DNA from: a virus
Lineage: Duplodnaviria > Heunggongvirae > Uroviricota > Caudoviricetes
IMG/VR virus record: IMGVR_UViG_3300009744_000018
Length of the DNA stretch: 64,000 nt
Reading direction: 5' to 3' (one strand)
Shown here in pieces: positions 3,001-50,660 of the stretch (position 1 is its first letter; every line of letters begins with the position of its first letter). The notes beneath the pieces were generated by a model. That model saw only the letters and a program-made list of their open reading frames with translations, was not told the origin of the DNA and did not search any database. The position numbers were made by a program, and so were the translations under genes.

Positions 3001-5948
3001 AATCACAAGAAGGTGAATGGTATTTACACATCAAAGCAACTGATAATTATTCAAATACAGCCTATGACTACTCAGGACCGTACAAGATAGATAAAACAGC
3101 ACCAGTAATCAACTCAACCAATATAACGCTCGATTCACCAACAAATGTCTATGATACCTATACAGCAACAATAGAATGGGATGTAGAGGATGCTTATAGT
3201 GGTGTTAATAAGACAGAGTTAGGATTTTATAAGGGGTCAAACGGCTTGGAGTTTGATGGTGTTAATGATTATGTGGATTGCGGAAATAGTACAGAACTAG
3301 ATATTACAGAGAGTATAACATTAGAGTGCTGGGTTAAAGGGAACCATCTTGGAAGTTGGGATAGGATTCTTGCCAAAGGATATGACAACTCATGGTTTTT
3401 GGGTACTTTTGATACTAATGGTACAGCAAGATTCAGGTTAGACTCTAACTCAAGCATGATAGCACAATTAGAAAGCAACACTATAATTCAAGATGGCAAA
3501 TGGCATCACATTTCCGGAACTTATGATGGTGCTCAATTAAAGCTTTATATTGATGGAATTCTAGAAAATCAAACATCTGGTACTGGGCTTATAAATATTG
3601 TTACATCTAATTTATATATTGGAGATGTAGACTTTACTTCCAGTTTTGCATATTCTGGTGTGGTAAAAGATGCAAGAATCTGGAACACAGCCAGAACAGC
3701 CGACCAGATTAAAGATAATATGTACACCAAACTAACAGGCAACGAAACTGGCCTCGTCGCTTACTACCCAATGGACGAAGACACAGGAACCACCCTGATA
3801 GACAAAGCAGGTTCTAATAACGGCACAATAAATGGTGCTACCTGGGATGAAGGTGGATGGTACTACGATGAAAACACCTTGCCTGATGGTATAACAACTA
3901 ATGTTGACATGGATAATATAACAGGTGGTGGTGTAAAGAGTGCTACTTTTAATAATATACCAAGAGAAGTAGAGATAGGTGCAGAGTTTAATGTAATAGA
4001 TAATGCTACTAATAATATTAAAAAAAGAAGTGATAATAATTGTTTAAGTTTTGATGGTGTTGATGATTATGTGAAAATAAATAATGTAGGATTTAACTCA
4101 GAACAAATAACTATTGAGTTCTGGGCTAAAATAAACACATCTTCAGGTAAGAATTATGCTTTTGATACAGGGGACGAAAGAGACCCATTGATGAAGTGGG
4201 ATGATGGTGACACTTCTGTAATAATTTGGGGGCTTGGTTCTACAGGATATACCAATTATTCCCAGGGTTATAAAATAGGTGAGTTTGCTCATTATGCTTT
4301 AACTTATGACAATTCTACTGAGAGATTATATATAAATGGAGATGAAGTTGATAGCAAAACAGGTTCAGAAATTGTAAATTTTGATGATTTATGGATAGGT
4401 AATTATAATAATTTAGGTTATTCAATTGATGGGCTTATTTACGATTTTCAAATCTGGAACAAAGCACTAACCCAAACAGAAATACAAAACTACATGCACA
4501 ACAAGCCTGACCCTAACGACCCTAACTTAGTTGCATACTACCCCTTCTCAGAAGGGAGTGGAAATACTCTCTATGATGTAACACCTAATAGTAATCATGG
4601 AACTATTAATGGGGCTACATGGGAGAAAGAATATGATTATGCGCTTAGTTTTGATGGTAATGAGTATATTACTATACCAGATGTAGCTGAAGAAATACAT
4701 GGTGGAACAGAAGCTACTATTGAATTTTGGTGTAGAGCAGATGAATTATATTCAACCGGAAGTGGAATAGTTCAACTTTCTGGATTTGAAAGTACTAATG
4801 GCAACTTATATCCTTATAATTCTTTTACTAAAGTGTACTTAGATGTTTTTAGAACTGACAGAATTGGCCCAATTTACACTAATTCTCCAGTAAATGAGCT
4901 TCATCATTTTGCAATAACAACAACTCCTGGAACTGACGGCTGGAGGTTTTATCAAAACGGAGAGCTGATTCATTCTGCTACTGGACCGGGTAGCGTATCT
5001 GCTAATTATAATGATTTTACTCTTGGGTTTAATTCAGGAAACAGATATCTGCACGGAATAATGAATGATGTTAGAATCTGGAACACAGCCAGAACCCAAA
5101 CCGAAATCCAGGAAAATATGCATAAAGAATTAACAGGTGACGAGTCTGGATTGGTTGCCTACTACAAGATGAACGAGTTTTCAGGCAACACTTTAATCGA
5201 CCACGCAGGTGATAATGACGGCCGGATAGAGGGAGCACACTGGGTTGATAAAGAAGGAAATGAGATTTATACACCAAGAATCATAAATGTTAGAACAGTA
5301 ACAACTAATTCTGACTATGAAATGGGAATAAACTCAGATTATAAATCTCAAACAGAATACGAAACTGGTATCAACAAAGATTACCAGTCGCCAAGTTCTC
5401 AAATAATAGATGTTTTATCAAAGTCATACGATTCTCCTACACTCTACGAAATAGGTAAAAGAACAAATTATAAATCACAAACATTATATGAAGCAGGCAT
5501 AAACAAAACAGAAGGTCCGGCACCTTCACTACAGGATATCTTGGTATTGTATGACGAACCTATCTTAGTAAGCGGTAAATTCTCGCAAGGCATAAGGCTA
5601 GGTCTATCAGACTTAGAAATTGATATCAGCGATTTTACTGAATGGACAATGCATGTATTTAGAAGAGGTATAGACGATAGTGAGTTTAGAACAATATTCA
5701 TCAACTCAAATGGAGAAGTTTATGTTGATAACGAAATAAACAATGAGTATGATGTTAGCTGGTTTGAGAGCACAAATGAAAAAATAACTATTAAAAGTGG
5801 GGCCATTGATATAGATGAGCTTTTAGTTTTTCCACAGATAATAGACCAAAAACAGATTGGCAGAATGGGTGGGTCACCGTTTTATGACCCTAACAGAAGT
5901 GTAAAAATTGATATGCCGGATTCAGTCGATATGGAGGTAATGCAATAA
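1..5948 (+). CDS. Giant tail fibre / host-adhesion protein with repeated LamG (concanavalin-like lectin) and FN3-like domains; 5' end lies upstream of the window
   Basis: The frame is open back to position 3 with no stop, and the track start at 60 is TTG. At least 6 repeats of the Laminin_G_3 signature (..IWN.ALT..EI...M...LVAYYP..E.SG.T..D..G.N.GTI.GATW..). There are FN3-like segments (TPPVSPNVTLVNNTSHSLSLSWTAED) and the protein exceeds 1962 aa. Confidence 0.6.
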   Translation, partial: VYITGVWDGLEQRIYINGVLSNSISTTISVIDYTDIAPFRLAKITSLNTNRLWSGKIGRFELWGNALTETEINKYMRKAPFGTESGLISFWDINNNSGTTVFDMAGTNDGTIYGATWTDTNFLEGQFNNAKVIDNNLELIRFNNYASYNIDKDIVDLYSGTRYPPATDNYTYRDDGRIYSSLYVPRGTENIIATKATTALWGAGGFEGGDCEVITDTSCPVGDGKVIKLDATTNTSFEDLGSVTFTDTELNTGDIYTLSWWFKGNSQPAYADRIYYTDGTWSRATKTWKSQPSPDPNNWQYYEVEMLIQDNGGKTYSSWKVPRFFYGSTDDTSIGYFSPFQLEKKSYATDFINGTRTGAGLSYTPSSFGVDFNSKNWTVMAWVKYGETITAGTRSTAFELGSYYIAGETDIGVGTRTSTNRLNLYGYENKAGQFGGGINLTPSEAKDWILVALTCNSSKLTLHTVSNESGYQSVTDDANWDTSANPIRDNLFVGRYGWNNGEINGNIEDLVVVPYEITGSQIEKIGLQAENAAGISSGSYISKQIDLSNMNSVSNSNISWGYGFNNSYYIVGTGMEDNNSAHSILINGAEKSLDSRGLNLVRLDSNGDYIESKSYDTHGSSAESDACATYINGLPNTDYLIVASQDQAAGAASGASSGNLTQSCIDAIANRLSSTSISTLEYRSNWLIFSKIDGEKIVEKYRSRQTGNVKWAHDISVETSADNQATWQSVSNGGQIQSSMNSADSLYIKATLKTEDGTVSTFLDSLTVEIETPIQYKWDSNTTTPSLWDEITANPVTQSSDGIWYLHTKYFENNEPVTEYKGTFNIDKTPPVSPNVTLVNNTSHSLSLSWTAEDSLSGLDYVRLYVQKSDSGNAHVADIDIDGNGTTEYSLPIGTQTSYTVDGLEEYQHYRYYIRVYDKAGNIANDGYHLMITDDITEPVVGYNLNSRDWLNTNVDEVINVDDQAGSGVAEAWYKWTNSAVQPTDGWIVMGTTTNFNTSQSQEGEWYLHIKATDNYSNTAYDYSGPYKIDKTAPVINSTNITLDSPTNVYDTYTATIEWDVEDAYSGVNKTELGFYKGSNGLEFDGVNDYVDCGNSTELDITESITLECWVKGNHLGSWDRILAKGYDNSWFLGTFDTNGTARFRLDSNSSMIAQLESNTIIQDGKWHHISGTYDGAQLKLYIDGILENQTSGTGLINIVTSNLYIGDVDFTSSFAYSGVVKDARIWNTARTADQIKDNMYTKLTGNETGLVAYYPMDEDTGTTLIDKAGSNNGTINGATWDEGGWYYDENTLPDGITTNVDMDNITGGGVKSATFNNIPREVEIGAEFNVIDNATNNIKKRSDNNCLSFDGVDDYVKINNVGFNSEQITIEFWAKINTSSGKNYAFDTGDERDPLMKWDDGDTSVIIWGLGSTGYTNYSQGYKIGEFAHYALTYDNSTERLYINGDEVDSKTGSEIVNFDDLWIGNYNNLGYSIDGLIYDFQIWNKALTQTEIQNYMHNKPDPNDPNLVAYYPFSEGSGNTLYDVTPNSNHGTINGATWEKEYDYALSFDGNEYITIPDVAEEIHGGTEATIEFWCRADELYSTGSGIVQLSGFESTNGNLYPYNSFTKVYLDVFRTDRIGPIYTNSPVNELHHFAITTTPGTDGWRFYQNGELIHSATGPGSVSANYNDFTLGFNSGNRYLHGIMNDVRIWNTARTQTEIQENMHKELTGDESGLVAYYKMNEFSGNTLIDHAGDNDGRIEGAHWVDKEGNEIYTPRIINVRTVTTNSDYEMGINSDYKSQTEYETGINKDYQSPSSQIIDVLSKSYDSPTLYEIGKRTNYKSQTLYEAGINKTEGPAPSLQDILVLYDEPILVSGKFSQGIRLGLSDLEIDISDFTEWTMHVFRRGIDDSEFRTIFINSNGEVYVDNEINNEYDVSWFESTNEKITIKSGAIDIDELLVFPQIIDQKQIGRMGGSPFYDPNRSVKIDMPDSVDMEVMQ

Positions 5949-24819: not shown

Positions 24820-25010
24820 TCTTGACGCTCCTCGGGGCAAGCCCACGAGGATTCCTCATTCATAGAGAATTGCCTACTTAAAGCATAGCAAAAGCTAGAT
24901 TAATTAGGTCTTATGCTCTCTCCAAAGGCGTAAATTCGGGTAAGCCCTACCCTATATAGTCTATCTTATACCTAAATCTAATTTGCCTTGTTTTAAAAGA
25001 TTTTTACTAG
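24820..25010 (-). ncRNA. Candidate omega/reRNA of TnpB (overlaps the tnpB 3' end through the right-end hairpin)
   Basis: Position-based inference only. TnpB elements encode their guide RNA from the 3' end of tnpB plus the right end, and the RE hairpin is at 24830-24850. Confidence 0.3.
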
Positions 25011-26082
25011 CGTTTATATCCCTGTCGTGATTTGCACCACACTCACAAGTCCAAGTGCGAACTGATAAATCTTTGACTTTAGGATTTTTAGTACCACATT
25101 CTGAACAGGTTTGACTACTAGCAAAAAACCTATCTGCTTTGTGTAATATGCAATTATACCACTTGCTTTTGTATTCCAGCATTGTAGTAAACATATTCCA
25201 GGCACAATCAGAAATATGTTTTGCAAGTTTAGAATTTTTAAGCATACCTTTTACATTTAAGTCCTCTATGACTAAAAGTTGGTTCTCCTTTGTTAGACTA
25301 GTTGACAGTTTATGCAAAAAGTCTTTACGAATATTTTTGATTTTTTCATGAACTTTAGCAATTTTCTTTTTAAGTTTATACCAATTGTTACTACCTTCTT
25401 CTTTACGAGCTAACCTTCTTTGTAATTTAGCAAGTTTATCTTGATATTTAGAAAGGTGCCTAGGATTTGAAATATGTTCACCATTAGAAGTAGTTAAAAA
25501 GTCTTTAATTCCTAAATCTAATCCTAATTCACATTGATTATCTTTAACAATAGTTACTAAGACTTGTTTAACATTAATTGATATATAATATTTACCTGCT
25601 CTAGATTTAGAAACTGTAACATTATTAATTTTACCTTTAACCTCTTTAGATTTAGCAAACTTAATCCAAGATAGTTTTGGTAGTTTAATCTTATTTTCTT
25701 TAATTTCAATATTTGTTGTACCACTAGGTCTAATGAATTTTTGTGTTCTATATGATAGCCTAGCTTTTCTTTTAGATTTAAACTTAGGATAATTATATTT
25801 ACCACTAAAGAAATTCTTAAAAGCTCTATCCAGGTCTTTAAGACTTTGCTGTAAAGCTATACTATCTACTTCTTTAAGCCACTCATATTCTTTTTTTAAT
25901 TGAGGCAGTTGTCTGGAATATTTAGTATATGATTGATAATTTTCTTCTTTAGTTTTTGCTAAAAATTCGTTGTAAATGAATCTAGAACAACCAATAGTTT
26001 TATCAATTAATTCTTGTTGTTCTTGATTAGGATAAATTCTAAACTTATATGCTTTGTTAATTGGCTTAAATTTTTTAATCAT
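24961..26082 (-). CDS. tnpB: TnpB (IS605 OrfB family RNA-guided nuclease)
   Basis: N-terminus KAYKFRIYPNQEQQELIDKTIGCSRFIYNEFL, a RuvC-like core and a C-terminal zinc finger (CSECG..C.CG); 373 aa. Confidence 0.85.
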   Translation of the reverse strand: MIKKFKPINKAYKFRIYPNQEQQELIDKTIGCSRFIYNEFLAKTKEENYQSYTKYSRQLPQLKKEYEWLKEVDSIALQQSLKDLDRAFKNFFSGKYNYPKFKSKRKARLSYRTQKFIRPSGTTNIEIKENKIKLPKLSWIKFAKSKEVKGKINNVTVSKSRAGKYYISINVKQVLVTIVKDNQCELGLDLGIKDFLTTSNGEHISNPRHLSKYQDKLAKLQRRLARKEEGSNNWYKLKKKIAKVHEKIKNIRKDFLHKLSTSLTKENQLLVIEDLNVKGMLKNSKLAKHISDCAWNMFTTMLEYKSKWYNCILHKADRFFASSQTCSECGTKNPKVKDLSVRTWTCECGANHDRDINASKNLLKQGKLDLGIR

Positions 26083-34481: not shown

Positions 34482-36089
34482 TTACTTAAAAGGATTTATC
34501 TTTTCAACTATTATTTGCAGTGACTTTCTGCCTCTATACTCATTCCAGCCAACTGTATATGTTAGGTTAACTTTACCCTCTCTCAAGGTTCTTTCCATAT
34601 CAGCCTGCCTAAAAGCTATAGCTTCAACCCCACCAGCTTTAAATTTAACATGTTCATTTCCTGGAAGAACCCAAACTGAAGTTATATCAACATTTTTTGA
34701 GTAGAATACAGGCTTCCTATTTCCCTCTCCACATGGTTCTAAAATTTCAAGGTCGTACAGTAGCTCTTCTGAAATTTCACCTATGTCTACCTCTTTATCA
34801 TAGGTTACTGGCATTAACTCTACACTTTCAGCAAGCTCATTTAGTCTTAAGCTAAAATCATCAAATTTGTTCATTGATACATTTAGGCCAGCTGCCATCG
34901 AGTGTCCACCTGCAGAATTTAAGAGTTCTTCTTCTAAGCAGACTTTTAAATTTTCGTAAAGATTAAACGGCTCTATGCTTCTGCCTGAACCCTTACCACT
35001 CTTTCTATCAACAACTATTGATGGCTTCTCAAAAGAAGATGATATTCTTCCTGAAATAAGTCCAACTATGCCCTGTGGTATATTGCCATTACAAACTATT
35101 ACTTTATCACTATCATCGATATCATTTTTCATTTCATCCAATATCTTTTTAGTGATGTCTTTTCTTTGAACGTTTTTTCTATAAAGCTCATCAGCTAATT
35201 CAGAACGTTGATATTCATTGTCAGTATATAAAATATCGTATGCTGGTCGAGCGGTTTTAAGTCTTCCAGTAGCGTTGATTAGTGGGCCTATCTTAAAGCC
35301 TATGTCAGTTGCTGAAAGTTTTGTTTCATCAACCTCGTTAACTTCAAGTATATTTTTTAGGCCGGAATTCATTATTCCCTTTCTCATACGCTTTAAGCCT
35401 TCTCTGACGATAATTCTGTTTTCATCAACTAAAGGTACAACATCAGCTACTGTAGCAACTGCTACGATGTCGATTACATCTAAGAATAAGTCATCTAGAA
35501 GATACTGAGAAAACTTCCAGGCTGCTCCAGCTCCACAAAGTTCAGTAAAGGGATAATCTCCCGAGTTTGCTTTTAAATCTATAAAAGGAGCATCAACACC
35601 ATCATCACTTTCGTGGTGGTCGATAACAACTACTTCCATTCCCAAAGAGCGTGCATAATCTATTTCAGCCTGATTAGATATACCGCAATCTAAAGTAATT
35701 ATTAACTTAGCTCCTTGATGGTTCATTATATCTATTGACCTTTTTGATAAGCCATAACCATCTTTAAATCTATTAGCAAAAAAGACATCCACCTTAGCAT
35801 TGTTTGACAGCTTTTTTAGTGCAGTTCTCAGTATATAAGCAGATGAAACTCCATCAGCATCATAATCTGAATAAATTGCAATCTTTGAAAAGAAGGCATA
35901 CTCTTTTACCTTGTCTGCAAATTCCTTAATATTTGGTATCTTTTCTGGTTCGTGCAGGTCTTTTAAAGAGCCGTTGAGAAAGAGGTCTAAATCTTTCTCA
36001 TTATCAAGACCTCTATCCACCATGAGCTCTGCTACTATTTTATTTATATTTAGTTTTTCTTGTATATCTTCTACTTTTAGTTTTTTCAA
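34482..36089 (-). CDS. recJ: Single-stranded-DNA-specific exonuclease RecJ
   Basis: DHH motifs (SDYDADGVSSAY, VVIDHHE) and a DHHA1 domain (GGGHSMAAG); 535 aa. Confidence 0.8.
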   Translation of the reverse strand: MKKLKVEDIQEKLNINKIVAELMVDRGLDNEKDLDLFLNGSLKDLHEPEKIPNIKEFADKVKEYAFFSKIAIYSDYDADGVSSAYILRTALKKLSNNAKVDVFFANRFKDGYGLSKRSIDIMNHQGAKLIITLDCGISNQAEIDYARSLGMEVVVIDHHESDDGVDAPFIDLKANSGDYPFTELCGAGAAWKFSQYLLDDLFLDVIDIVAVATVADVVPLVDENRIIVREGLKRMRKGIMNSGLKNILEVNEVDETKLSATDIGFKIGPLINATGRLKTARPAYDILYTDNEYQRSELADELYRKNVQRKDITKKILDEMKNDIDDSDKVIVCNGNIPQGIVGLISGRISSSFEKPSIVVDRKSGKGSGRSIEPFNLYENLKVCLEEELLNSAGGHSMAAGLNVSMNKFDDFSLRLNELAESVELMPVTYDKEVDIGEISEELLYDLEILEPCGEGNRKPVFYSKNVDITSVWVLPGNEHVKFKAGGVEAIAFRQADMERTLREGKVNLTYTVGWNEYRGRKSLQIIVEKINPFK

Positions 36090-36104
36090 TTTACCACCCT
36101 CTTT

Positions 36105-37179
36105 CTAATTAGCTTTCTTAAAGAAATCTCCTTCAATCAATTTAACTTTATCAACCAGCATTGCATTACTTTTATCTTTTTTACCTTCAAGTTTTAATTT
36201 AAAACCTTTTTGAAATAAGTCATGATTGGAGCGATATGTGTCCGGAAAAACTACAAGTTTAATCTTATTTTTATCTGTTTTAACTTTTGCAAAAGCCATT
36301 AATTTATTTGACTTTCTGGTTTTAACCTCTTTAGATTCTGTAATTATGCCTTCCACCTCTAAGACCTCTCCGCTTTTAGCAAAATCCCATTCAGAAGGAT
36401 AGGTTAAAGATAAACCGATTGTGTCCATTTCGAATTCAATAATTTCTTCTTTTGTGGGTTCTGGTTCGTCAAAAACTCCAGAACCTTCCTCATTTTTGAA
36501 GGCATCAAATAGTGACTGCCTCATCTGTCCAAACTCTTTAATAGTCTTGTAATCTACAAGTAATTGTTTTCTGTTTTTGCCGAATGAATCCATTGCCCCA
36601 GCTTTAATTAAAGATTCAAAAGCTGTCTTATTAACAACTCTTGTATCAACCTTCTGGTACATATCATCTAGGTCTTTAAACGGTCTTTGATTCATTATTT
36701 CGGTGCTTGCTTTTTTACCTAAACCATCAATCGCATTTAAACCCAGTCTTATCTTCCCGTTAACAGCTGTAAAGCGCCCTTCTGACTCGTTAATGTCAGG
36801 AGGTAGTATATCTATCTTCTTTTTATAGCAGTCCGAGAAATAGTCCGTAATCGAGCTGTCAGAGCCACTCTTTGCTGCTTCAACACTCATGATAGCTGCA
36901 TAGAACTCTGCCGGAAAATGGTATTTAAGGTAAGCAGTGGCATAAGATATTAATGCATAGCAAGCAGAATGTGATTTATTAAAGCCATAGCCGGCAAAAT
37001 ATTCGATTAATCTAAACATTTCATCAGCAAATTCTTCTGTGTGGCCATTTTCTTTAGCTCCTGCTTTAAACTTAACTTTCATTTTTTCTAATACTTTTAT
37101 TTTCTTTTTTCCCATTCCACGCCTTAATATATCTGCCTCTCCCAGGCTGAAGTTAGCAATTATCTGTGCAGTTTTCATT
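36105..37179 (-). CDS. dnaE: DNA polymerase III alpha subunit (DnaE), exon 3 (C-terminal 357 aa)
   Basis: (V)MKTAQIIANFSLGEADILRRGMGKKK matches DnaE ..[31 protein letters not shown]. It continues exon 2, which ends ..YQEQV. Confidence 0.7.
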
Positions 37180-38755
37180 CAATTATGTTATCGCAAAAGC
37201 TTTTTATCTTCTGCTTCTATATCTGCTATCTTTACAAATATAGTTCGGCATACATTTTCACCTTATTTAAGGTGTCGAACACTCGTGGAGAGATTATATT
37301 TTACATATAAATGTAAGTTCACTCTCTATGCTCTACGGTATTAACAGATTTTTAGGTCTATTAATTACCTCGGTATTATCACATATAATATCCATTCTTT
37401 TTCTTTTTCTTGGTAGCCAAATATTAGCATCTTTGTACATGTATTTATATAGCTTTTTAGAAAATGATATACCACTTTGAAAGTAATATAGATTAGTACT
37501 TTTATGGATTGTTTTATTGCTTTTTATTACCTTTTGTATAGATTTAAGCATTTTTTTATTTCCACAAAACCCACTTCTCTTACTTTTTTTGATGCAAGTT
37601 ATGCCATCTCCATCAAAAAACCCTCTAATAAAGTGTCTATACATATTATCAGGTATTTGAAAGGGAAATGATTCTTTTCCCGTCTTATTAGGTATAACAC
37701 CATATTCAAATAATTTTTCAGTCATATGTCTTGATGTTAAGCTACATCTGCAACAGTAACCTTTTTTTGAATATCCAGAATTTTTACCAACATAAGGATT
37801 AAGAGAACTTTCTAAGTGGCTTAAAAACCCATAAATAATCTCTTTGTCCTTTAAGGCTACACCTAATTTTATAGAATATTGACCATTATAGATAGAAGTG
37901 TTTCCATCAGCCATTAAAAAACCCAAAAAATAAGCTTTTTCTTCTTTGTTTATTTTATCAAAAAAATCTTCTTTTTTTATGCTATTCTCTAATCCTCTTT
38001 TTATATCAAAACCTTCTTTCTTTAACCATAATGAAATAGTGTTTCTATTAATACCTGTTTCAGTTGCTATTTCACATAAATATAATCCTGATTTATAAAG
38101 ATTAACAACTCTTTTTTTATAAACATCTTTATATCCTATTTTATCCCCATGATTAAATTTTGAATTTTTTGTTAGTCCAGCATTTCTTAAATATTTATAC
38201 ACTGTACCAACACTTATATTCAATAATTTTGATATTTCTTTTCCAAACTTACCTTCATTATAAAGGTCCATTATTTTTTTGATTTTATATTCACTTATTT
38301 TTTCAGTTTTTTTAGATTTTTGTGGATTTTGTAAACTTATATCAGATTCATTAATCCATTTATAAATTGTACTTCTGCAAGGCATAATTTCCATTTTAGA
38401 AATATCAGTAACAGAAATGCCATCGCCATACATGTTTAATGCTTTTATTTTGCGTTGACTACTTTTCATCTTTATCACCTTCTACATATTGAAAGAGTAT
38501 ATACCTAACCATTTCAGAAAAATTAATTCCTTTTTTGTCAGCTATTTTTTGAATGTCTTCTTCCAGCTGTTCCGGTAAATAAATATTTCTTCTTTTCATT
38601 TTTATCATCTCCAACGTGTGGTATTTGTATCACCTTGCATACATTATTATAACACACATTGAATCATTTTTCAAATTATGGATATTTAGATAGTGGCTTC
38701 ACCGATTTTGCTCGATAATAATCTAGCTTATTTCTAAGCTGGACGGCAATTTCTT
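37180..38755 (-). other. Group-I-type intron in dnaE (intron 1) carrying a LAGLIDADG homing endonuclease ORF
   Basis: It interrupts the conserved DnaE sequence YQEQV|M. Exon 2 ends in U (..CAG GU) and the intron ends in G (..AAUUG) before A AUG. The intervening frame has stops, so this is not an intein. Confidence 0.55.
37333..38478 (-). CDS. LAGLIDADG homing endonuclease (intron-encoded), with N-terminal HTH repeats
   Basis: Two LAGLIDADG motifs (YFLGFLMADGNTS and FIRGFFDGDGIT). It is free-standing inside the dnaE intron. Confidence 0.7.
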   Translation of the reverse strand: MIKMKSSQRKIKALNMYGDGISVTDISKMEIMPCRSTIYKWINESDISLQNPQKSKKTEKISEYKIKKIMDLYNEGKFGKEISKLLNISVGTVYKYLRNAGLTKNSKFNHGDKIGYKDVYKKRVVNLYKSGLYLCEIATETGINRNTISLWLKKEGFDIKRGLENSIKKEDFFDKINKEEKAYFLGFLMADGNTSIYNGQYSIKLGVALKDKEIIYGFLSHLESSLNPYVGKNSGYSKKGYCCRCSLTSRHMTEKLFEYGVIPNKTGKESFPFQIPDNMYRHFIRGFFDGDGITCIKKSKRSGFCGNKKMLKSIQKVIKSNKTIHKSTNLYYFQSGISFSKKLYKYMYKDANIWLPRKRKRMDIICDNTEVINRPKNLLIP

Positions 38756-40707
38756 ACCTGTTCCTGGTATACTAGGTAACCGTATGTTTCCTCTAATTCC
38801 TTTTTTAAACTTTCGTGTGGATATTCTACTTTTTCATTACCGTGCATTCTGTCGAAATATTTTTCCACAATACCAGCTTCAAGTGGTCCCGGGCGACCGA
38901 GAGCAAGTATAGCAATTATATGCTCGAACTTTGTAGGTTTCATTTTCTTTAACAGCCTTTTAAATAGTTGTGATTCTACCTGAAAAACCCCGTTGGTATC
39001 AGCCTTCTGATAGATGTTTTTATATACATCTTTATCATCAAGAGGTAAATCCCAAATGTTTTGTACTGTAGGCTTATACTCTAAGCTATCATAATCTTTT
39101 CTGTTCTTGATAAACTTAATAGCCTCACCTATGATAACAACAGTCTTTAACCCTAAGAAATCCATCTTGAGCAAACCTAAATCTTCGCTATCGTGCATCT
39201 CTGTCTGAGTTACATATGTTATCTCACCAGTCTGGCTGTTTTTGGTTCGTGCTAAAGGTGTGTAATCATCAACAGGCTCTGGAGTAATAACAACTGCTGA
39301 GGCATGTGTACCTAACTGTCTAGGCTTACCTTCTAGCTTTTGAGCTATATCGAATAGTTTTGGATACTGTTCAGCATACATCTTAAGTTCTTTACTTTCT
39401 TCCAGTGCTTCCTTGATTGAAATACCTGGGGTATCGGGAAATGCCTTTGATATCTCTTTATTCATTAGATTGTAATCATATCCTAATACTCGGCCTACAT
39501 CTTTAACAGCTGATTTAGCACCTAGTGTACCAAAGTTACAGATACTTGCTACATTTTCTTCTCCGTATTTGTCGATTACATACTGGATAACTTTTCCTCT
39601 ATTTCCAAAATCTATATCAATATCAGGCATAGCAGTTCTTTCAGGATTTAAGAATCTTTCAAACAGCAGTCCATACTTAACAGGGTCTAAGGCTGTGATG
39701 CCTAAAAGATAGGATAGAAGTGAGCCTGCTGCAGACCCTCGACCAGGACCAACAATGATGTTATTATCTTTAGCCCACTGAACATAATCTTCAACAATTA
39801 AAAAGTAGGCAGGATACCCCTTCATATTTATAACCTCAAGCTCTGTATCAAGCCGTCTGGCGTATTTATCCATATCAATGTCTTTTTCTACAGCCAACTC
39901 AAAAAGCTTCTTAAAGGCCCTTTCTTCAAGGTATGACTCAAGTGTATAACCTTCAGGAACTTCGAACTTAGGAAGGAGTAAATTACCTAAATCAAGCTCG
40001 ACTGTATCACATTTATCGGCAATTTTTACTGTATTCTCAACTGCACTATCTCTGGCATCTATAAAATCAGACTCTACACTTTTTGCAAAAAGCTGACTTT
40101 TTATCTCATCTTCACCCTTAAAATAGTATGAATCTCCATGAAATCTAAATCTGTCATTATCTTCAACTTTTGCCCCTGTTTGAATACATAGCATAACGTC
40201 ATGAGCTTCTATACTGTCCTTTTCTAGATAGTGCATATCTGATGTAGCTACAAGCTCTATATCTAATTTTCTAGCTAAATTTGCAAGCTTTGAGTTCATT
40301 ACGTACTGCTCTGATACATCGTTGGCCATAATCTCTATATAGAAATCATCACCAAAAAGTTTTTTATATTTTAGAGCTATTTCTTCTGCTCTTTCATTGT
40401 TGTTATTCTCTAAGGCTCTTGGTATCTCTCCTGCAAGGCAGGCAGAACTTACTATAAGTCCTTCAGAATGCTCTTTTAAAATTTCAAAATCTATTCTTGG
40501 TTTATAATAAAAACCTTCTGTATTTGACTTACTCACCATCTTAAAAATATTATCCAATCCTTTTTTATTTTTAGCAAGGATTATAAGGTGGTGTCTTTTA
40601 CCTTCTTTATCATGCATGTCATTAGCTACATATACTTCAATTCCAAATATATGTTTAATTTCTTCTTCTTTGGCTGCTTTATAAAGCTCTACGAAATTAT
40701 GGATACT
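38756..40707 (-). CDS. dnaE: DNA polymerase III alpha subunit (DnaE), exon 2 (PHP and polymerase core)
   Basis: GPGRGSAAGSLLSYLLGITALDPVKYGLLFERFLNPERTAMPDIDIDF and a C-terminus ..LVYQEQV. The track ORF 38734-40710 includes intron-derived tail codons (RNCRPA*) and a spurious TTG start. Confidence 0.7.
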
Positions 40708-41837
40708 CAATTGTGTTATCCTACAAGTTTTTTACCATGTAGTTCTTGCAGTTCATTTCCTGCAAGTTCAGCATACCTTTTGCCCACCAGCATTACCTGT
40801 GAGGACAGGAGTCTCTTGGAAAAATTATATTCTTTAATACAAATTAAAGTTTCATTTTCTATGCGTTGCCCCTGACTAATATTTTAAAATTAGCCTTCGG
40901 TTCGGATTGGCTTCTCAGCTTTCCCGCTTAATACTCCTGTAATAATTCTAAACATTCCTGTTTAGAACGGCAAATTTATCATGTTTTCTCTTTAAATATA
41001 TATTAGCATCTTTATATAGGTAGTCTTTAATTTTCAAAACAGCAAGCCTTCCTGACTTTCTTATTTTGTACATATCAGATTTATGAAATTTTGGTTTTTG
41101 CATAAATATATCATTTTTTTCAAACTCATCAGATATTTCATTTAGCATATCTTTATAGCCCATTATATAAAATTCACAATTTAAAGAGTTCTTGTGATGG
41201 TTATCATTTCTTATTGAATATGATATACATCCATCACCGTCAAAGTAACCTCTTATAAAATGATTCATATATTCTTCTTTTATATTTGGTAATGAGTTTG
41301 TGTTTTTTACACCTAGTTTTATTAAGTCTTGATATATTTTTTTATTGGTAAAAGACAGAGTATATTGTCCAATATTACTATATCTATCCTTTCTTGGTTT
41401 AATGTAATATAATGGACCTGCATAACCAACTTCATTTTTTACATCTAAAAGAAGTTTTTTATCATCTTCTTTTAAACCAATAGAGGCCACATAACTTCTT
41501 CCTGAAATATATACGCTTCCATCTGAATAAAATAATCCTAATATATAGGCTTTCTCTTTAGAATTTATTTCAGAAAAATATTTTTGATTTATTTTATATT
41601 GTGGTTGACCTCCTGGATTTCTTGATTTTATATTATACTCTTTGAAAGTCGTTTGTATTTTTGAAGCACTTACATTAAAATATTTTCCTATATCTTTATG
41701 ACTTAAACCATCATTATAAAGATTTTTCATTTCATTAATTTGTTTTGTAGAAAAAATAATTTTTTTAGTAATTTTTATCACCCTCTTTAGCTTAAAGGTG
41801 CTAATATATTTATAATTATAACATGATATTAATGTTT
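40708..41837 (-). other. Group-I-type intron in dnaE (intron 2) carrying a second LAGLIDADG homing endonuclease ORF
   Basis: It interrupts the conserved PHP motif AITDHG|SIHNFVELYKAAK (compare DnaE AITDHGNMFGAVEFYKAAK). Exon 1 ends in U (GGU) and the intron ends in G (..CACAAUUG). Confidence 0.55.
40948..41781 (-). CDS. LAGLIDADG homing endonuclease (intron-encoded)
   Basis: Motifs YILGLFYSDGSV and FIRGYFDGDGCI, with an N-terminal HTH. Confidence 0.7.
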   Translation of the reverse strand: MIKITKKIIFSTKQINEMKNLYNDGLSHKDIGKYFNVSASKIQTTFKEYNIKSRNPGGQPQYKINQKYFSEINSKEKAYILGLFYSDGSVYISGRSYVASIGLKEDDKKLLLDVKNEVGYAGPLYYIKPRKDRYSNIGQYTLSFTNKKIYQDLIKLGVKNTNSLPNIKEEYMNHFIRGYFDGDGCISYSIRNDNHHKNSLNCEFYIMGYKDMLNEISDEFEKNDIFMQKPKFHKSDMYKIRKSGRLAVLKIKDYLYKDANIYLKRKHDKFAVLNRNV

Positions 41838-41963
41838 ACCGTGGTCTGTTATAGCAACAGTTTTTTGACCCATATCTTTTGCTTTCTTCACAATATCCTT
41901 TGGTGAATCAAAGCCGTCCAAAAAAGAGTAGTAACTGTGGTTGTGTAAATTAACATAAGACAA
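41838..41963 (-). CDS. dnaE: DNA polymerase III alpha subunit (DnaE), exon 1 (42 codons); not in the ORF track
   Basis: TTG start after an AGGAGGAAG RBS. (M)SYVNLHNHSYYSFLDGFDSPKDIVKKAKDMGQKTVAITDHG matches the DnaE N-terminal PHP motif (HLHxHSxYSLLDG...ALAITDHG). Confidence 0.6.
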
Positions 41964-42019
41964 ATAACTTCCTCCTTTCGTTTCGTTAAGTTTATTATAT
42001 CATACTTCACTTGATTATT

Positions 42020-47618: not shown

Positions 47619-50600
47619 CTAACCCTCATATCCGTTTTCAGCATCACACTTAGGACAGAATTCGTGTTCTCCTGGCAGATACCCATGTATTGGACAAATA
47701 CTAAAAGTAGGAGTAATAGAGTAATAAGGAAGTTCATAATTTTCAGCAACTCTTTTAACAAACTTTTTGGTAGCCTCTATTCCAGGCATTCTCTCTCCTA
47801 GAAATAAATGTAAAACTGTTCCTCCTGTATAATTTTTCTGAAGTTCATCCTGCCAATCTAAAGCTTCAAAAGGGTCGTCTGTAGCCCCTACAGGTAGCTG
47901 AGTTGAATTAGTGTAATACGGGTCAGCATCTTCTGTATAAACCCTTTTATCATTAGCAAAAACAGCTTCTTCTTTCCCAAACTTATCAAGGTCTGATTTG
48001 GCCAATCTATAGCTTGTTCCTTCAGCTGGAGTAGCTTCAAGGTTAAAAAGGTCACTTGTTTCTTCCTGGTACTCCACCATTCTTTCTTTCATTTTGTACA
48101 TAACCCATTTAGTAAATTTAATAGCTTCATGTTCTGTCATATCTTTTCCTAAGAAATTCATAACAGATTCATTCATTCCATTTAATCCGATTGTATTAAA
48201 GTGATTTTTCCAGTACTCTCCAAAACGTTCCTTAATACTTCTTAGATAAAACTTAGAATAAGGGTAAAGACCTGCATCTGTTAACTCTTCTAAAATTCTT
48301 CTTTTAATTTCTAAACTTTCTTTTGCAATATCCATTAATTCATAGACTCTCTCTAAATAATCATCAGTATTTTCTGCTAAAAGTCCAATTCTGGGCATAT
48401 TAAGTGTTACTACACCGATAGAGCCTGTCATAGGCGATGAGCCGAATAAACCTCCTCCTCGCTTTCTTAATTGCCGATTATCAAGGCGCAGCCTGCAGTT
48501 ATGAGTCAAGATTCCAGTTGTGCCAACCGTAAACATTGGTTCTCCATCTTTGACTTCAAAACAATAAGCCGTTTGTTTTTCTTTTAGTTTTTCAACTTTA
48601 TCTATTTTCATCCACAGTTTTGAGTCTTTTTTAAACCAAACGTCGCCATAACTATTTCTATTTAATTTGTAAAATAAAACAGCATAATTTGGATTATCTC
48701 CTAGTCTTCCATCACTTTTTTTTCTGTCATCAGTATAAACATTGGTTGTTGTTCCCAGAGTAGCAGCTAACATATTTAAGCTTTCTACCATTTTTTCTGA
48801 TGATGTATAAATTCTATTTTTGTTTCCTCCATCAGTTTCATAATAGCCATCAAATAATCCTGTTCTAAAGTGTTTGCTCATTTCAAAAACATTTGCTTTG
48901 AAGTATTTATTTAATGCATTATCCCCATCAACAAAACTTTCAATCATTGATTTTACTGCTGGATTATATGTTGAAAGTTTAACTACATTATTTTTTTCTT
49001 CTTTTTCGGTAAATTTAGCCCCAAAAAGTTTAGTCAGTATTTCTTTTAAATTTTCAAGCACTGTTAGCTTGGTATTATTATTTAAAGAAAAAACAGTTCC
49101 TGTATTTTTATCACAGCTTCCGTCTCCTGCAAAAGCTCCTATTAAATAGCCAAGGTCATAAGTTCCTCCTTCGCCTTTAAAACTTGTTAAGCTATAAGGT
49201 AGATAATAACCTTCTTTTAAGTCTTTTCCTGACATTTCTTCAATATCTTTATTTTTATTTTTGATAACAAAATTTAAATGTTCTTCAGTCATCTTTATCT
49301 CATGCCCGTTAACCAATCTTACATTTATCATATTTTGATTTTCAAACTTATTGAATCGACCTTCTATAAATTTACCATCAGAATAGACTAATATATCATC
49401 ATTATCTTTAGTGTCATAATATGTGTGGTTAATTTGGGAGTATCTTACATTGTCATCACCTGTTTTAACTAATACCTTTTCTTTTCCGTCAAGTGGACAC
49501 ATTGAGCGAGCGTCTTCAGCTTTCATATCGGAATTGACGAAGTTCGCAAAATATGGAATTCCGTACTTGGCTGTCATTTCCCAAACAGGATTTAATATTT
49601 CGTTATCCCAATCAAAATCTGGAGTAATGTTATAAGTAGGAATAGGGAAAGAAAATACTCTTCCTTTTGAATCTCCCGCCAGCATAACCTCAGCAAAAGC
49701 CTTGTTAATCATGTCCATTTCCTTCTGGAAATTTTTAAGCGGCATGTCATAAAGCATTTCGCCACCAATAATAGCTGGGTCCTCTGCCATATTTGATGGA
49801 CAAACTAAATCCATAGTTAAATTTGTAAAAGGACTTTGAAATCCAACCCGTGTCGGTACATTTAAATTAAAAATAAATTCCTGCATAGCCTGATAAACTT
49901 CATCATAATCAAGTCCATCATAAGATACAAACGGTGCAAGATAAGTATCGAAACTTGAAAAAGCTTGAGCTCCAGAACTCTCTCCCTGTAAAGTATATAA
50001 AAAATTAACCATTTGTCCTAAAGCAGTTCTGAAGTGTTTTGGTGGTGCCGACTCTATCTTGGTTGACACTCCTGAAAAACCTTCCAATAATAAATCCTGA
50101 AGGTCCCATCCACAACAGTAATTACTTAAATTAGCAAGGTCGTGAATGTGCAAATCTCCACTTACATGCTTTTCTTTAATGTGTTTAGGGTAAATTTCAT
50201 TTAACCAATAATGGCCTGTCACCTCGCTTGCTATATGATTATTTAAACCCTGAAGACTATAACCCATATTGGAGTTCTCATTAACTTTCCAATTGCTTAA
50301 ATCAAGGTAATTATTAACTGTATCATTTATTCCATTGTATAGTTTTTGAGCATCTCTATACTTTTCATGCTGCTTTCTATATAATATATAGTTTTTTGCT
50401 ATTTCATAATGTCTGTTTTCCATTAATTCATACTCAACAATATCCTGTAAAGTCTCAACATTAACAGAGTTTAATCCAGAACTAATCATTCCACTTATAT
50501 TATCTTCTATTTCTTCAACAATATTATTTGCAACAAAATTCCAAAAATCTTCACCTTTTTTTTCTGCTGTTGCCTTCGCTGCTTTATAAACTGCATCTTT

Positions 50601-50660
50601 AATTTTTTTATTTTTATATTCTACTTTTCTTCCGTCTCTTTTAATTACATAAAACGACAT
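47619..50660 (-). CDS. nrdD: Anaerobic ribonucleoside-triphosphate reductase NrdD (ATP-cone plus class III RNR), contains an intein; ORF ends before the glycyl-radical motif
   Basis: N-terminal ATP-cone (VIKRDGRKVEY), GDLHIHDL, and a C-terminal Zn-ribbon CPIHGY..CPKC. There is no RVxG(Y/F) Gly-radical motif. The intein is at residues 388-721. Confidence 0.8.
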   Translation of the reverse strand: MSFYVIKRDGRKVEYKNKKIKDAVYKAAKATAEKKGEDFWNFVANNIVEEIEDNISGMISSGLNSVNVETLQDIVEYELMENRHYEIAKNYILYRKQHEKYRDAQKLYNGINDTVNNYLDLSNWKVNENSNMGYSLQGLNNHIASEVTGHYWLNEIYPKHIKEKHVSGDLHIHDLANLSNYCCGWDLQDLLLEGFSGVSTKIESAPPKHFRTALGQMVNFLYTLQGESSGAQAFSSFDTYLAPFVSYDGLDYDEVYQAMQEFIFNLNVPTRVGFQSPFTNLTMDLVCPSNMAEDPAIIGGEMLYDMPLKNFQKEMDMINKAFAEVMLAGDSKGRVFSFPIPTYNITPDFDWDNEILNPVWEMTAKYGIPYFANFVNSDMKAEDARSMCPLDGKEKVLVKTGDDNVRYSQINHTYYDTKDNDDILVYSDGKFIEGRFNKFENQNMINVRLVNGHEIKMTEEHLNFVIKNKNKDIEEMSGKDLKEGYYLPYSLTSFKGEGGTYDLGYLIGAFAGDGSCDKNTGTVFSLNNNTKLTVLENLKEILTKLFGAKFTEKEEKNNVVKLSTYNPAVKSMIESFVDGDNALNKYFKANVFEMSKHFRTGLFDGYYETDGGNKNRIYTSSEKMVESLNMLAATLGTTTNVYTDDRKKSDGRLGDNPNYAVLFYKLNRNSYGDVWFKKDSKLWMKIDKVEKLKEKQTAYCFEVKDGEPMFTVGTTGILTHNCRLRLDNRQLRKRGGGLFGSSPMTGSIGVVTLNMPRIGLLAENTDDYLERVYELMDIAKESLEIKRRILEELTDAGLYPYSKFYLRSIKERFGEYWKNHFNTIGLNGMNESVMNFLGKDMTEHEAIKFTKWVMYKMKERMVEYQEETSDLFNLEATPAEGTSYRLAKSDLDKFGKEEAVFANDKRVYTEDADPYYTNSTQLPVGATDDPFEALDWQDELQKNYTGGTVLHLFLGERMPGIEATKKFVKRVAENYELPYYSITPTFSICPIHGYLPGEHEFCPKCDAENGYEG
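48498..49499 (-). mobile_element. Intein (334 aa) with LAGLIDADG endonuclease domain within NrdD
   Basis: Inserted in the conserved ..DARSM|C..: it begins with Cys (CPLDGKEKVLV) and ends ..GILTHN, followed by Cys of CRLRLD. LAGLIDADG-like motifs LIGAFAGDGS and LFDGYYETDGG. It is in-frame with no stops. Confidence 0.7.

Follow-up and report, generated by a model that had tools for sequence, protein, structure and literature searches.

Two putative Twort-like group I introns with LAGLIDADG reading frames in the dnaE gene of an uncultured phage

Mobile group I introns have been described in the polymerase genes of the phages SPO1 and SP82 (I-HmuI), Bastille (I-BasI) and the Bastillevirinae, where they interrupt conserved polymerase motifs, carry an endonuclease gene in a peripheral loop and home with co-conversion (PMC11878797, PMC3984707). 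The dnaE gene studied here is found on a 64,000-nt stretch of DNA (IMG/VR virus record IMGVR_UViG_3300009744_000018, Caudoviricetes; hereafter the window) from an uncultured phage with a genome of ~188 kb. It is very probably one gene broken by two mobile Twort-like group I introns, each with a LAGLIDADG endonuclease, and it resembles the systems above in the points just named. Their host gene, however, is of family A (Pol I-type), whereas dnaE encodes the C-family Pol III alpha, and their enzymes are mostly HNH nickases, unlike the helix-turn-helix (HTH)-LAGLIDADG proteins found here. Phage introns mostly carry GIY-YIG, HNH, PD-(D/E)xK or EDxHD enzymes (review, PMC3984707). A literature search found no description of a group I intron in phage dnaE.

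As for the RNA, the closest known system is orf142 of phage Twort, whose introns I2 and I3 are self-splicing group I introns of subgroup IA2, I2 being the crystallised Twort ribozyme. A 71-mer of that ribozyme is 98.6% identical to the Twort record AF132670. The record gives the orf142 coding sequence as a four-piece join and states that it 'contains group 1 introns'. Both genes thus hold several introns, but those of orf142 have no open reading frame (ORF), whereas the dnaE introns each carry a LAGLIDADG gene. A further parallel is provided by the fractured genes of Dassa et al. 2009 (PMC2677866), in which a free-standing endonuclease gene lies between the halves of a split intein; among them, DnaE is broken by an endonuclease gene in phage-like metagenomic DNA. 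In contrast to these, the dnaE breaks in the window are without intein halves, and removal would take place at the RNA level.

Gene continuity and empty insertion sites

All features of dnaE and its introns are encoded on the minus strand. A ribosome-binding site, AGGAGG (41976..41971), precedes a TTG start codon (41963..41961) with a spacing of 7 nt, both by direct reading of the sequence (41961..41976). Exon 1 (41838..41963) comprises 42 codons for the N-terminal end of the PHP domain and ends with ..AITDHG / ..CACGGT. The frame reopens at 40707 with SIHNFVELYKAAK, and exon 2 (38756..40707), whose first codons are AGT ATC CAT (SIH), completes PHP and encodes the polymerase core and the greater part of the finger domain up to ..YQEQ + GT. 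The Val codon GT|A is divided by intron 2. Exon 3 (36105..37179) opens with A ATG AAA, that is (V)MK, and encodes the end of the finger domain, HhH and the OB fold, with the stop at 36105. The exons sum to 126 + 1952 + 1075 = 3153 nt, in frame, encoding 1050 amino acids (aa).

The joined protein matches DnaE chains of solved structure in the PDB with E-values of 1e-206 to 1e-179 (phmmer; 2hpi E 1e-206; 5fku, 4jom), and its N-terminus MSYVNLHNHSYYS matches Taq DnaE from residue 6 on. Both junctions align with these chains without gaps, junction 1 as 'aitdhgsihnfvelykaak' vs 'amtdhgnlfgavefykka' and junction 2 as 'yqeqvmktaqiianfslgead' vs 'yqeqimqiasqvagyslgead'. Correspondingly, the Pfam DNA_pol3_finger profile is broken at junction 2 between positions 121 and 122, and the PHP domain in exon 2 begins at profile position 40. 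The joined frame is under strong purifying selection, with a ratio of nonsynonymous to synonymous substitution rates (dN/dS) of 0.08 against the sibling L003 (L-numbers denote sibling or related contigs). dnaE is therefore in use, and the insertions must be removed.

Gene calls do not reflect this layout. The program-listed ORF for exon 2 (38734..40710, 658 aa) takes its TTG start from the final three bases of intron 1 and runs into an intron-encoded tail, RNCRPA*. Gene calls on the siblings L003 and L048 also skip exon 1. The annotations omit exon 1 and misplace the limits of exon 2 on every examined contig carrying these introns, and the phage therefore seems to be without an intact replicative polymerase. 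An earlier note on this DNA, made from the sequence alone, had proposed three dnaE exons with exact continuity at both joints, an unannotated exon 1 at 41838-41963 with a TTG start and a ribosome-binding site, and an exon-2 ORF mis-delimited by its TTG start and RNCRPA* tail. The gap-free PDB alignments, the AGGAGG at 41976..41971 and the ORF listing, respectively, agree with these proposals. The closest database protein (P0001 from contig L003, 97% identity, 1009 aa) consists of exon 2 and exon 3 unbroken. A megablast search of the locus against GenBank phages returned a single 38-nt match and nothing else, and an IMG/VR search for loci related to the spliced DnaE returned only 35%-identical genes without introns.

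The comparison with intron-less relatives that the note had suggested yields an exact empty site for each intron, and the three-exon layout goes far beyond chance. Intron 1 (40708..41837, 1130 nt) starts with AAACAUU and ends with GAUAACACAAUUG. It is exactly missing from L049 and L050, which are 95-99% identical and have intron 2. Exon 1 of L049 runs straight into exon 2 (..GACCACGGC AACATTCAC..), and its empty site reads ..GACCACGGCAACATTCAC... Intron 2 (37180..38755, 1576 nt) starts with AAGAAAUUGCCGU and ends with GAUAACAUAAUUG. It is exactly missing, with no length change, from L003, which matches the window with 98% nucleotide identity across exons 1 and 2 and the intron 1 between them; the empty site reads ..CAGGAGCAAGTTATGGCTGCT... 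Over 8.1 kb, the 188-kb contig L048 shows no difference from the window.

Around the empty sites, the exons differ from those of the window in patches of 50-110 nt and are ~100% identical beyond them. The site-2 patch, ~55-70% identical, reaches ~59 nt to the upstream and 47 nt to the downstream side; at site 1, 13 changes fall within ~50 nt. The window patch at site 2 (MKTAQII) is closer to L005 (MKTAQVI) and L046 (MEIAKII) than to L003 (MAAARRL). Homing with co-conversion of flanking exon gives such patterns (PMC3984707), and the patches look like its traces. In the more distant L046 and L047, whose DnaE is 60-68% and 38% identical to that of the window, the YQEQ|x-M site is likewise occupied by intron 2, whose endonuclease, a homologue of the one in the window, lies in the corresponding loop.

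Further elements are found in dnaE of the related contigs. L049 (1192..~2984) and L050 carry a third intron, here called X, at the catalytic motif MPD|IDIDF, which is not in the window. Intron X of L049 matches Intron_gpI with 53.4 bits (E 3.5e-13), at the Rfam gathering score, and codes for a ribbon-helix-helix (RHH) protein and for an HTH-LAGLIDADG protein of 452 aa. More distant relatives have a fourth site, GFNKSH|S, that is occupied by an ORF-less group I intron in L004 (5970..6355, Rfam 32.6 bits) and, at the same motif, by an intein (PF14890) in L005 (about 4957..5444). L003 also has an extra 93-aa gene (4627..4908) between dnaE and recJ that is not in the window (36089..36105). Exon 3 is 92.5% and exon 2 98% identical to L003, which suggests further recombination downstream of site 2.

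An RNA family with a group I core

Introns 1 and 2 have in common a GUAUGCYGAAC box and the 3' end GAUAACAYAAUUG. A two-part motif derived from these, GTATGCYGAAC..GATAACAYAATTG, is found on 36 IMG/VR contigs, nearly all directly before a long ORF. The 31 distinct family copies (38 pattern matches) all end with ..AAUUG just before the downstream ORF, and the terminal G is invariant among them. A profile hidden Markov model (HMM) of 24 family members, from which the window was excluded, matches the window at three places only, namely 40971..40708 in intron 1 (E 2e-40) and 37387..37180 (E 9e-38) and 38747..38690 (E 1e-3, a 5' piece) in intron 2. A covariance model built from the family 3' domain (CM R1) matches 40869..40708 with 126.8 bits and 37336..37180 with 136.3 bits.

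Distant BLAST matches place the family in gyrA of the Bacillus phages AR9/PBS1, in tape-measure genes of the C. difficile phiCD211 type and in Aeromonas, Yersinia, Staphylococcus and Listeria phages. The AR9/PBS1 gyrA introns resemble those of dnaE in being recognized by the family models (HMM E 1e-26, CM R1 ~73 bits) and in occurring as two copies in one gene, with the coding sequence annotated as a three-piece join. They differ in the host gene and in their 3' tail, ..GGUUAAUAACUA. The family-type intron in the tape-measure region of Clostridium phage phiCD211 (L043 2355..2923; LN681537 28588..29156) ends 23 nt before a second, Intron_gpI-annotated intron, so that two different group I introns stand nearly back to back.

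The family structure was derived from an alignment of 26 sequences (A2). RNAalifold predicts a long-range P3 enclosing a branched domain, together with P6, P7.1, P8, P9 and P9.1 (labels assigned by us), and 34 of its 35 pairs show compensatory changes. In a fuller manual structure, made up of the RNAalifold helices plus P2 and the invariant P7, 89.4% of the cells are paired, vs 63.6% with partners shuffled and 35-44% with partners slid. Double changes are present in 40 of the 46 pairs, and none of 500 shuffles attains the observed values. P4 alone occurs in at least nine compensatory versions, e.g. CGGG/UCCG, CAGG/CCUG, CGAG/CUCG, CGUG/CACG, CAAA/UUUG and UCGGUG/UACCGA. P7.1, located between P7 and P3', is 100% paired with compensatory changes in four of five pairs and has an optional inner hairpin. 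Overall, covariation is strong for P2, P3, P4, P6, P7.1, P8, P9 and P9.1. The order of elements is that of a group I core (P3, P4-P5-P4', P6, P7, P7.1, P3', P8, P7', P9, P9.1, terminal G), including the P3/P7 pseudoknot, with the 5' strand of P7 inside P3 and its partner beyond P3' and P8.

The intron-1 ribozyme core is found at 40708..40974, based on alignment A2, RNAalifold and pair counts, with P1 from reading of the sequence. Its guide UUUGCCGU (40974..40967), just 5' of P2, pairs with ACGGU|AAA (41842..41835) to give a P1 of 8 bp with a U·G at the cleavage site. P2 (40966..40947) is followed by P3, P4-P6, P7, P7.1, P8, P9, P9.1 and the terminal G at 40708. In intron 2 the core is in two parts. 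The 5' part (38690..38755) holds P1 (GGU|AA-GAAA-UUGCC), P2 (AGCUUA-GAAA-UAAGCU), J2/3 (AUUAUU) and the 5' strands of P3 (UCGAGCA), P4 (UCGGUG) and P5. The 3' part (37180..37382) runs from P5' through P4' (UACCGA), P6, P7 (GCAUA), P7.1, P3' (UGUUCGA), P8 (CACCUU/AAGGUG), P7' (UAUGC), P9 and P9.1 to the terminal G at 37180.

Arguments from P1 are limited here to junctions that protein alignment or empty sites establish independently; an unconstrained family-wide P1 search combined with ORF continuity was discarded, since its search space was too wide and its best-ranked matches were spurious. At the YQEQ site of dnaE, exon end and guide are GGU/GCC in the window, GAU/GUC in L046 and GCU/GGC in L047. 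Thus, the middle pair of P1 covaries (G-C, A-U and C-G, respectively), and the U·G is constant in the three phages. The 3' exon AAU and an AUU just 5' of the guide G may form a P10 in all three. The ORF-less relatives L010, L036 and L019 show P1 helices of the UUCGGU|../GCCGAA type. The earlier note had expected guide pairings with ..CAGGU and ..ACGGU, 5' splice sites after a U and introns ending in G; P1 was located for both introns, and the two boundary features are present in both.

The intron-2 guide UUGCCGU (38741..38747) can form 5 bp with its own 5' splice site, GGU|AA, but 7 bp with that of intron 1, ACGGU|AA (41836..41842), which is the better partner. Pairing of the latter kind could lead to skipping of exon 2, with exon 1 joined out of frame to exon 3. 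Exon skipping has reportedly been observed for Twort orf142.

CM R1 finds both Twort introns in 89 kb, I2 with 33.4 bits (E 1e-4) and I3 with 34.9 bits (E 5e-5), and both matches end exactly at the 3' splice sites. The family profile searched against Twort with nhmmer gives collinear matches that are not significant alone (E 0.1-2.6). P7 is compensatory between the two groups, with GCAUA/UAUGC here and GACUA/UAGUC in Twort. At the putative guanosine-binding site in P7, a flanking C..G pair and a bulged Y before GAAC agree with Twort as well. Further common features are a short P1 hairpin (GCAU|AA-AUAA-UU-GUGC in Twort I2 vs GGU|AA-GAAA-UU-GCC in window intron 2), P2 with a 4-nt GNRA-type loop after UGCC, P3, P4-P6 with CAAUCC, J6/7 GCAAC and P7, and a 3' domain with ..UGAAC, P9 with a GAAA loop, GAAG, P9.1 and (G)UAACAUAAUUG. 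The region from P7 to P3' is different, consisting here of one helix with conserved UGAA and GAAUAUAAU internal loops, followed by CCACGAG. Together with the P7.1 between P7 and P3', the similarity to Twort suggests an affinity to the phage introns of the IA2 type.

Intron-encoded proteins and a recurrent RHH cassette

Each intron encodes a predicted LAGLIDADG homing endonuclease. The earlier note had described two free-standing double-LAGLIDADG ORFs of 381 and 277 aa; both have Pfam matches, and a difference in frame or intervening stops set them apart from the exons. The intron-1 ORF (40948..41781) comprises 277 aa from a GTG, matches PF14528 (E 1e-10) and PF00961, and has the motifs AYILGLFYSDG and FIRGYFDGDG and one N-terminal HTH. 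It occupies the P1 loop, and its final codons, with the stop, extend into the guide sequence and P2. L008 and L015 show this overlap at the C-terminus too (..YKDANVYLERK..FNRNV). P1-loop ORFs are known from recA introns (PMC2677866).

The intron-2 endonuclease (37333..38469) more likely comprises 378 aa, from ATG 38469, rather than 381 aa from GTG 38478. Its motifs are AYFLGFLMADG and FIRGFFDGDG (PF14528), preceded by three N-terminal HTH repeats. The ORFs of intron 2 occupy the P5 loop, and the 3' end of the endonuclease gene overlaps P5', P4' and P6. Homologues at the same intron position are 55% (L046) and 47% (L047) identical; the endonuclease as a query against viral contigs gave no match. 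The two window endonucleases are paralogues (28% identity, E 2e-18), and in both ORFs (PF14528 and PF00961) each chain holds two LAGLIDADG motifs with acidic residues. Related HTH-LAGLIDADG proteins are common in Clostridia-type genomes and are frequently named 'transposase'.

A block that is absent from the earlier note precedes the intron-2 endonuclease. It starts with a strong promoter-like site of the sigma-70 type, TTGAAA-17-TGnTATAAT (38646..38674), that fits at 11 of 12 positions and is the best in the 6.2-kb region. Downstream, a CopG-like RHH ORF (38459..38614; PF07878 RHH_5, E 4e-6) of 51 aa, or 46 aa from ATG 38599, overlaps with its end the endonuclease start at ATG 38469. The RHH gene is called as 46 aa on 15 contigs. 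A 92% identical copy of the ~208-nt promoter and RHH cassette (at 38459..38690) is present in L049 (1216..1432) within intron X, an unrelated intron, where it precedes a different, 28% identical endonuclease within a different ribozyme; the homologous introns of L046 and L047 lack the cassette. The cassette is therefore separable. We tentatively propose that a portable promoter and RHH cassette was placed before two distant endonucleases in two unrelated dnaE ribozymes, with the RHH protein acting perhaps as an autoregulator or an antitoxin-like partner. The RHH protein probably regulates endonuclease expression. To our knowledge, no accessory module of this kind has been described for intron homing.

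The -10 box of the internal promoter is enclosed by an imperfect inverted repeat, CAATGTGTG..CACACGTTG. This repeat was seen by eye and could be an operator, as a weak lead; an inverted-repeat scan near the promoter did not report it.

Other mobile elements are encoded in the window as well. The nrdD gene (47619..50660, minus strand, 1013 aa), in the same replication module, holds an intein with a LAGLIDADG domain (PF14890, PF14528). A gene of the TnpB / IS605 OrfB type (PF01385, PF07282, PF12323) is found at 24961..26082 on the minus strand. Short ORFs of 41-48 aa with NRDD Pfam matches (L004 3498..3644, L005 627..761 and L045 1968..2093) sit apart from the main nrdD or beside radical-SAM genes in the related contigs; they may reflect a split nrdD or be remnants.

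Alternative explanations and implications

Several points weigh against two functional group I introns. Splicing, guanosine dependence and endonuclease activity are all read from sequence. P7 is invariant in the family (26 of 26), and the support for its pairing comes from one comparison, that with Twort. P1 of intron 2 is short, with just three exon and two intron base pairs, and it is uncertain at which codon the intron-1 ORF begins. Finally, the search with Rfam Intron_gpI (RF00028) that the earlier note had suggested gave no match to either intron. No group I match was returned for the whole window at the gathering threshold, nor at E<=10 for the 6.1-kb region or the 301-nt intron-1 core, where the matches obtained are snoRNA-type noise, and RF00028 does recognize other dnaE introns, namely those of L004 (32.6 bits) and intron X of L049 (53.4 bits).

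The gathering threshold of RF00028 is 50 bits, and it is a detection model, not a definition. It also gave no match at E<=10 to the ORF-less family member L010 (4872..5130), scanned alone. Because this relative is missed too while other dnaE introns are scored, the negative result is ascribed to the sensitivity of the model, a blind spot, and was dropped as evidence against group I introns. Phage introns of the IA2 type are heterogeneous and often only partly matched (PMC11878797).

A truly fragmented polymerase, in which pieces of 42, ~650 and 357 aa are translated apart and assemble without RNA splicing, would agree with the listed ORFs, which give exon 2 a TTG and exon 3 an ATG start, and split or 'fractured' DnaE with free-standing endonucleases has been described (PMC2677866). 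We consider it very unlikely, since the breaks fall inside invariant motifs (DHG|x, YQEQV|M) without extra residues, the TTG 'start' of exon 2 is the conserved ..AAUUG end of the intron, the spacers are a covarying RNA family ending exactly at the exon, and siblings have the uninterrupted gene at identical length. A free 42-aa peptide with PHP metal ligands is also implausible. The introns might instead be decayed and non-splicing, or lack a factor, leaving dnaE a pseudogene and the phage reliant on the host polymerase. The missing Rfam match, the short intron-2 P1 and the better fit of the intron-2 guide to the 5' site of intron 1 (7 bp), which could cause non-productive exon skipping, point that way. 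This is nevertheless improbable given a joined-frame dN/dS of 0.08, intact core helices in both introns with scores near the top of the family models (CM R1, HMM), two intact endonuclease ORFs and an arrangement that is 100% conserved on an independent 188-kb contig.

Removal at the protein level, by inteins or split inteins, is brought to mind by the LAGLIDADG domains, which are common in inteins, and by the inteins present in nrdD of the window and in dnaE of L005. As the earlier note had held, it can practically be dismissed: every frame between the exons is interrupted by stop codons, neither ORF is in frame with the exons, each has translation signals of its own, and neither has a Hint or PF14890 match in Pfam, although PF14890 is present in nrdD and in dnaE of L005. 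Group II introns or another class of intervening sequence are equally improbable. LAGLIDADG-encoding group II introns exist, and a recent report places group II introns in phages (PMC12350094), but the boundaries here (AAACAU..AAUUG and AAGAAA..AAUUG) show no GUGYG start and no AY end, there is no domain V, no reverse transcriptase domain and no Rfam group II match, and the P3-P9 core covaries as a group I core with similarity to Twort. Eukaryote-like GT-AG boundaries were ruled out, as they break the frame. The preference of the note for group I introns over inteins or a split polymerase thus stands, supported by the covarying core, P1, the terminal G, the CM match to Twort and the exact presence or absence of each intron among siblings.

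With two group I introns in dnaE, a single pre-mRNA would carry the whole gene with both introns. In each intron, P1 would form between the ribozyme guide and the upstream exon end, placing the U·G wobble where cleavage occurs. This position would be attacked by an external guanosine, and the freed exon would then attack after the intron's terminal G, joining the exons into the 1050-codon frame. In a mixed infection, the endonuclease would cut intron-less dnaE alleles, and repair would copy the intron together with a short stretch of flanking exon. The intron-2 endonuclease would be expressed from the intron-internal promoter as the second gene of a small operon, behind that of the RHH protein.

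The mobile group I intron with a LAGLIDADG gene is a known kind of element. What is added here is its presence and absence within a population, dnaE as the host gene, the blind spot of Rfam and the RHH cassette. Within the population, introns occupy at least three sites of one dnaE (DHG|S, MPD|IDID, YQEQV|M), and a fourth (NKSH|S) is used in relatives. Each element is independently present or absent with an apparent co-conversion scar, which is useful for the definition of LAGLIDADG target sites. The family forms a widespread clade of phage group I introns invisible to RF00028, with 36 IMG/VR contigs by the strict motif in addition to AR9/PBS1 and C. difficile, Aeromonas and Yersinia phages, and surveys seeded with RF00028, e.g. 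the 2025 intron database (PMC11835236), would probably miss it. The RHH and promoter cassette hints at an uncharacterised control of intron endonucleases; if the proposed role is true, the RHH protein would set the level or timing of their expression.

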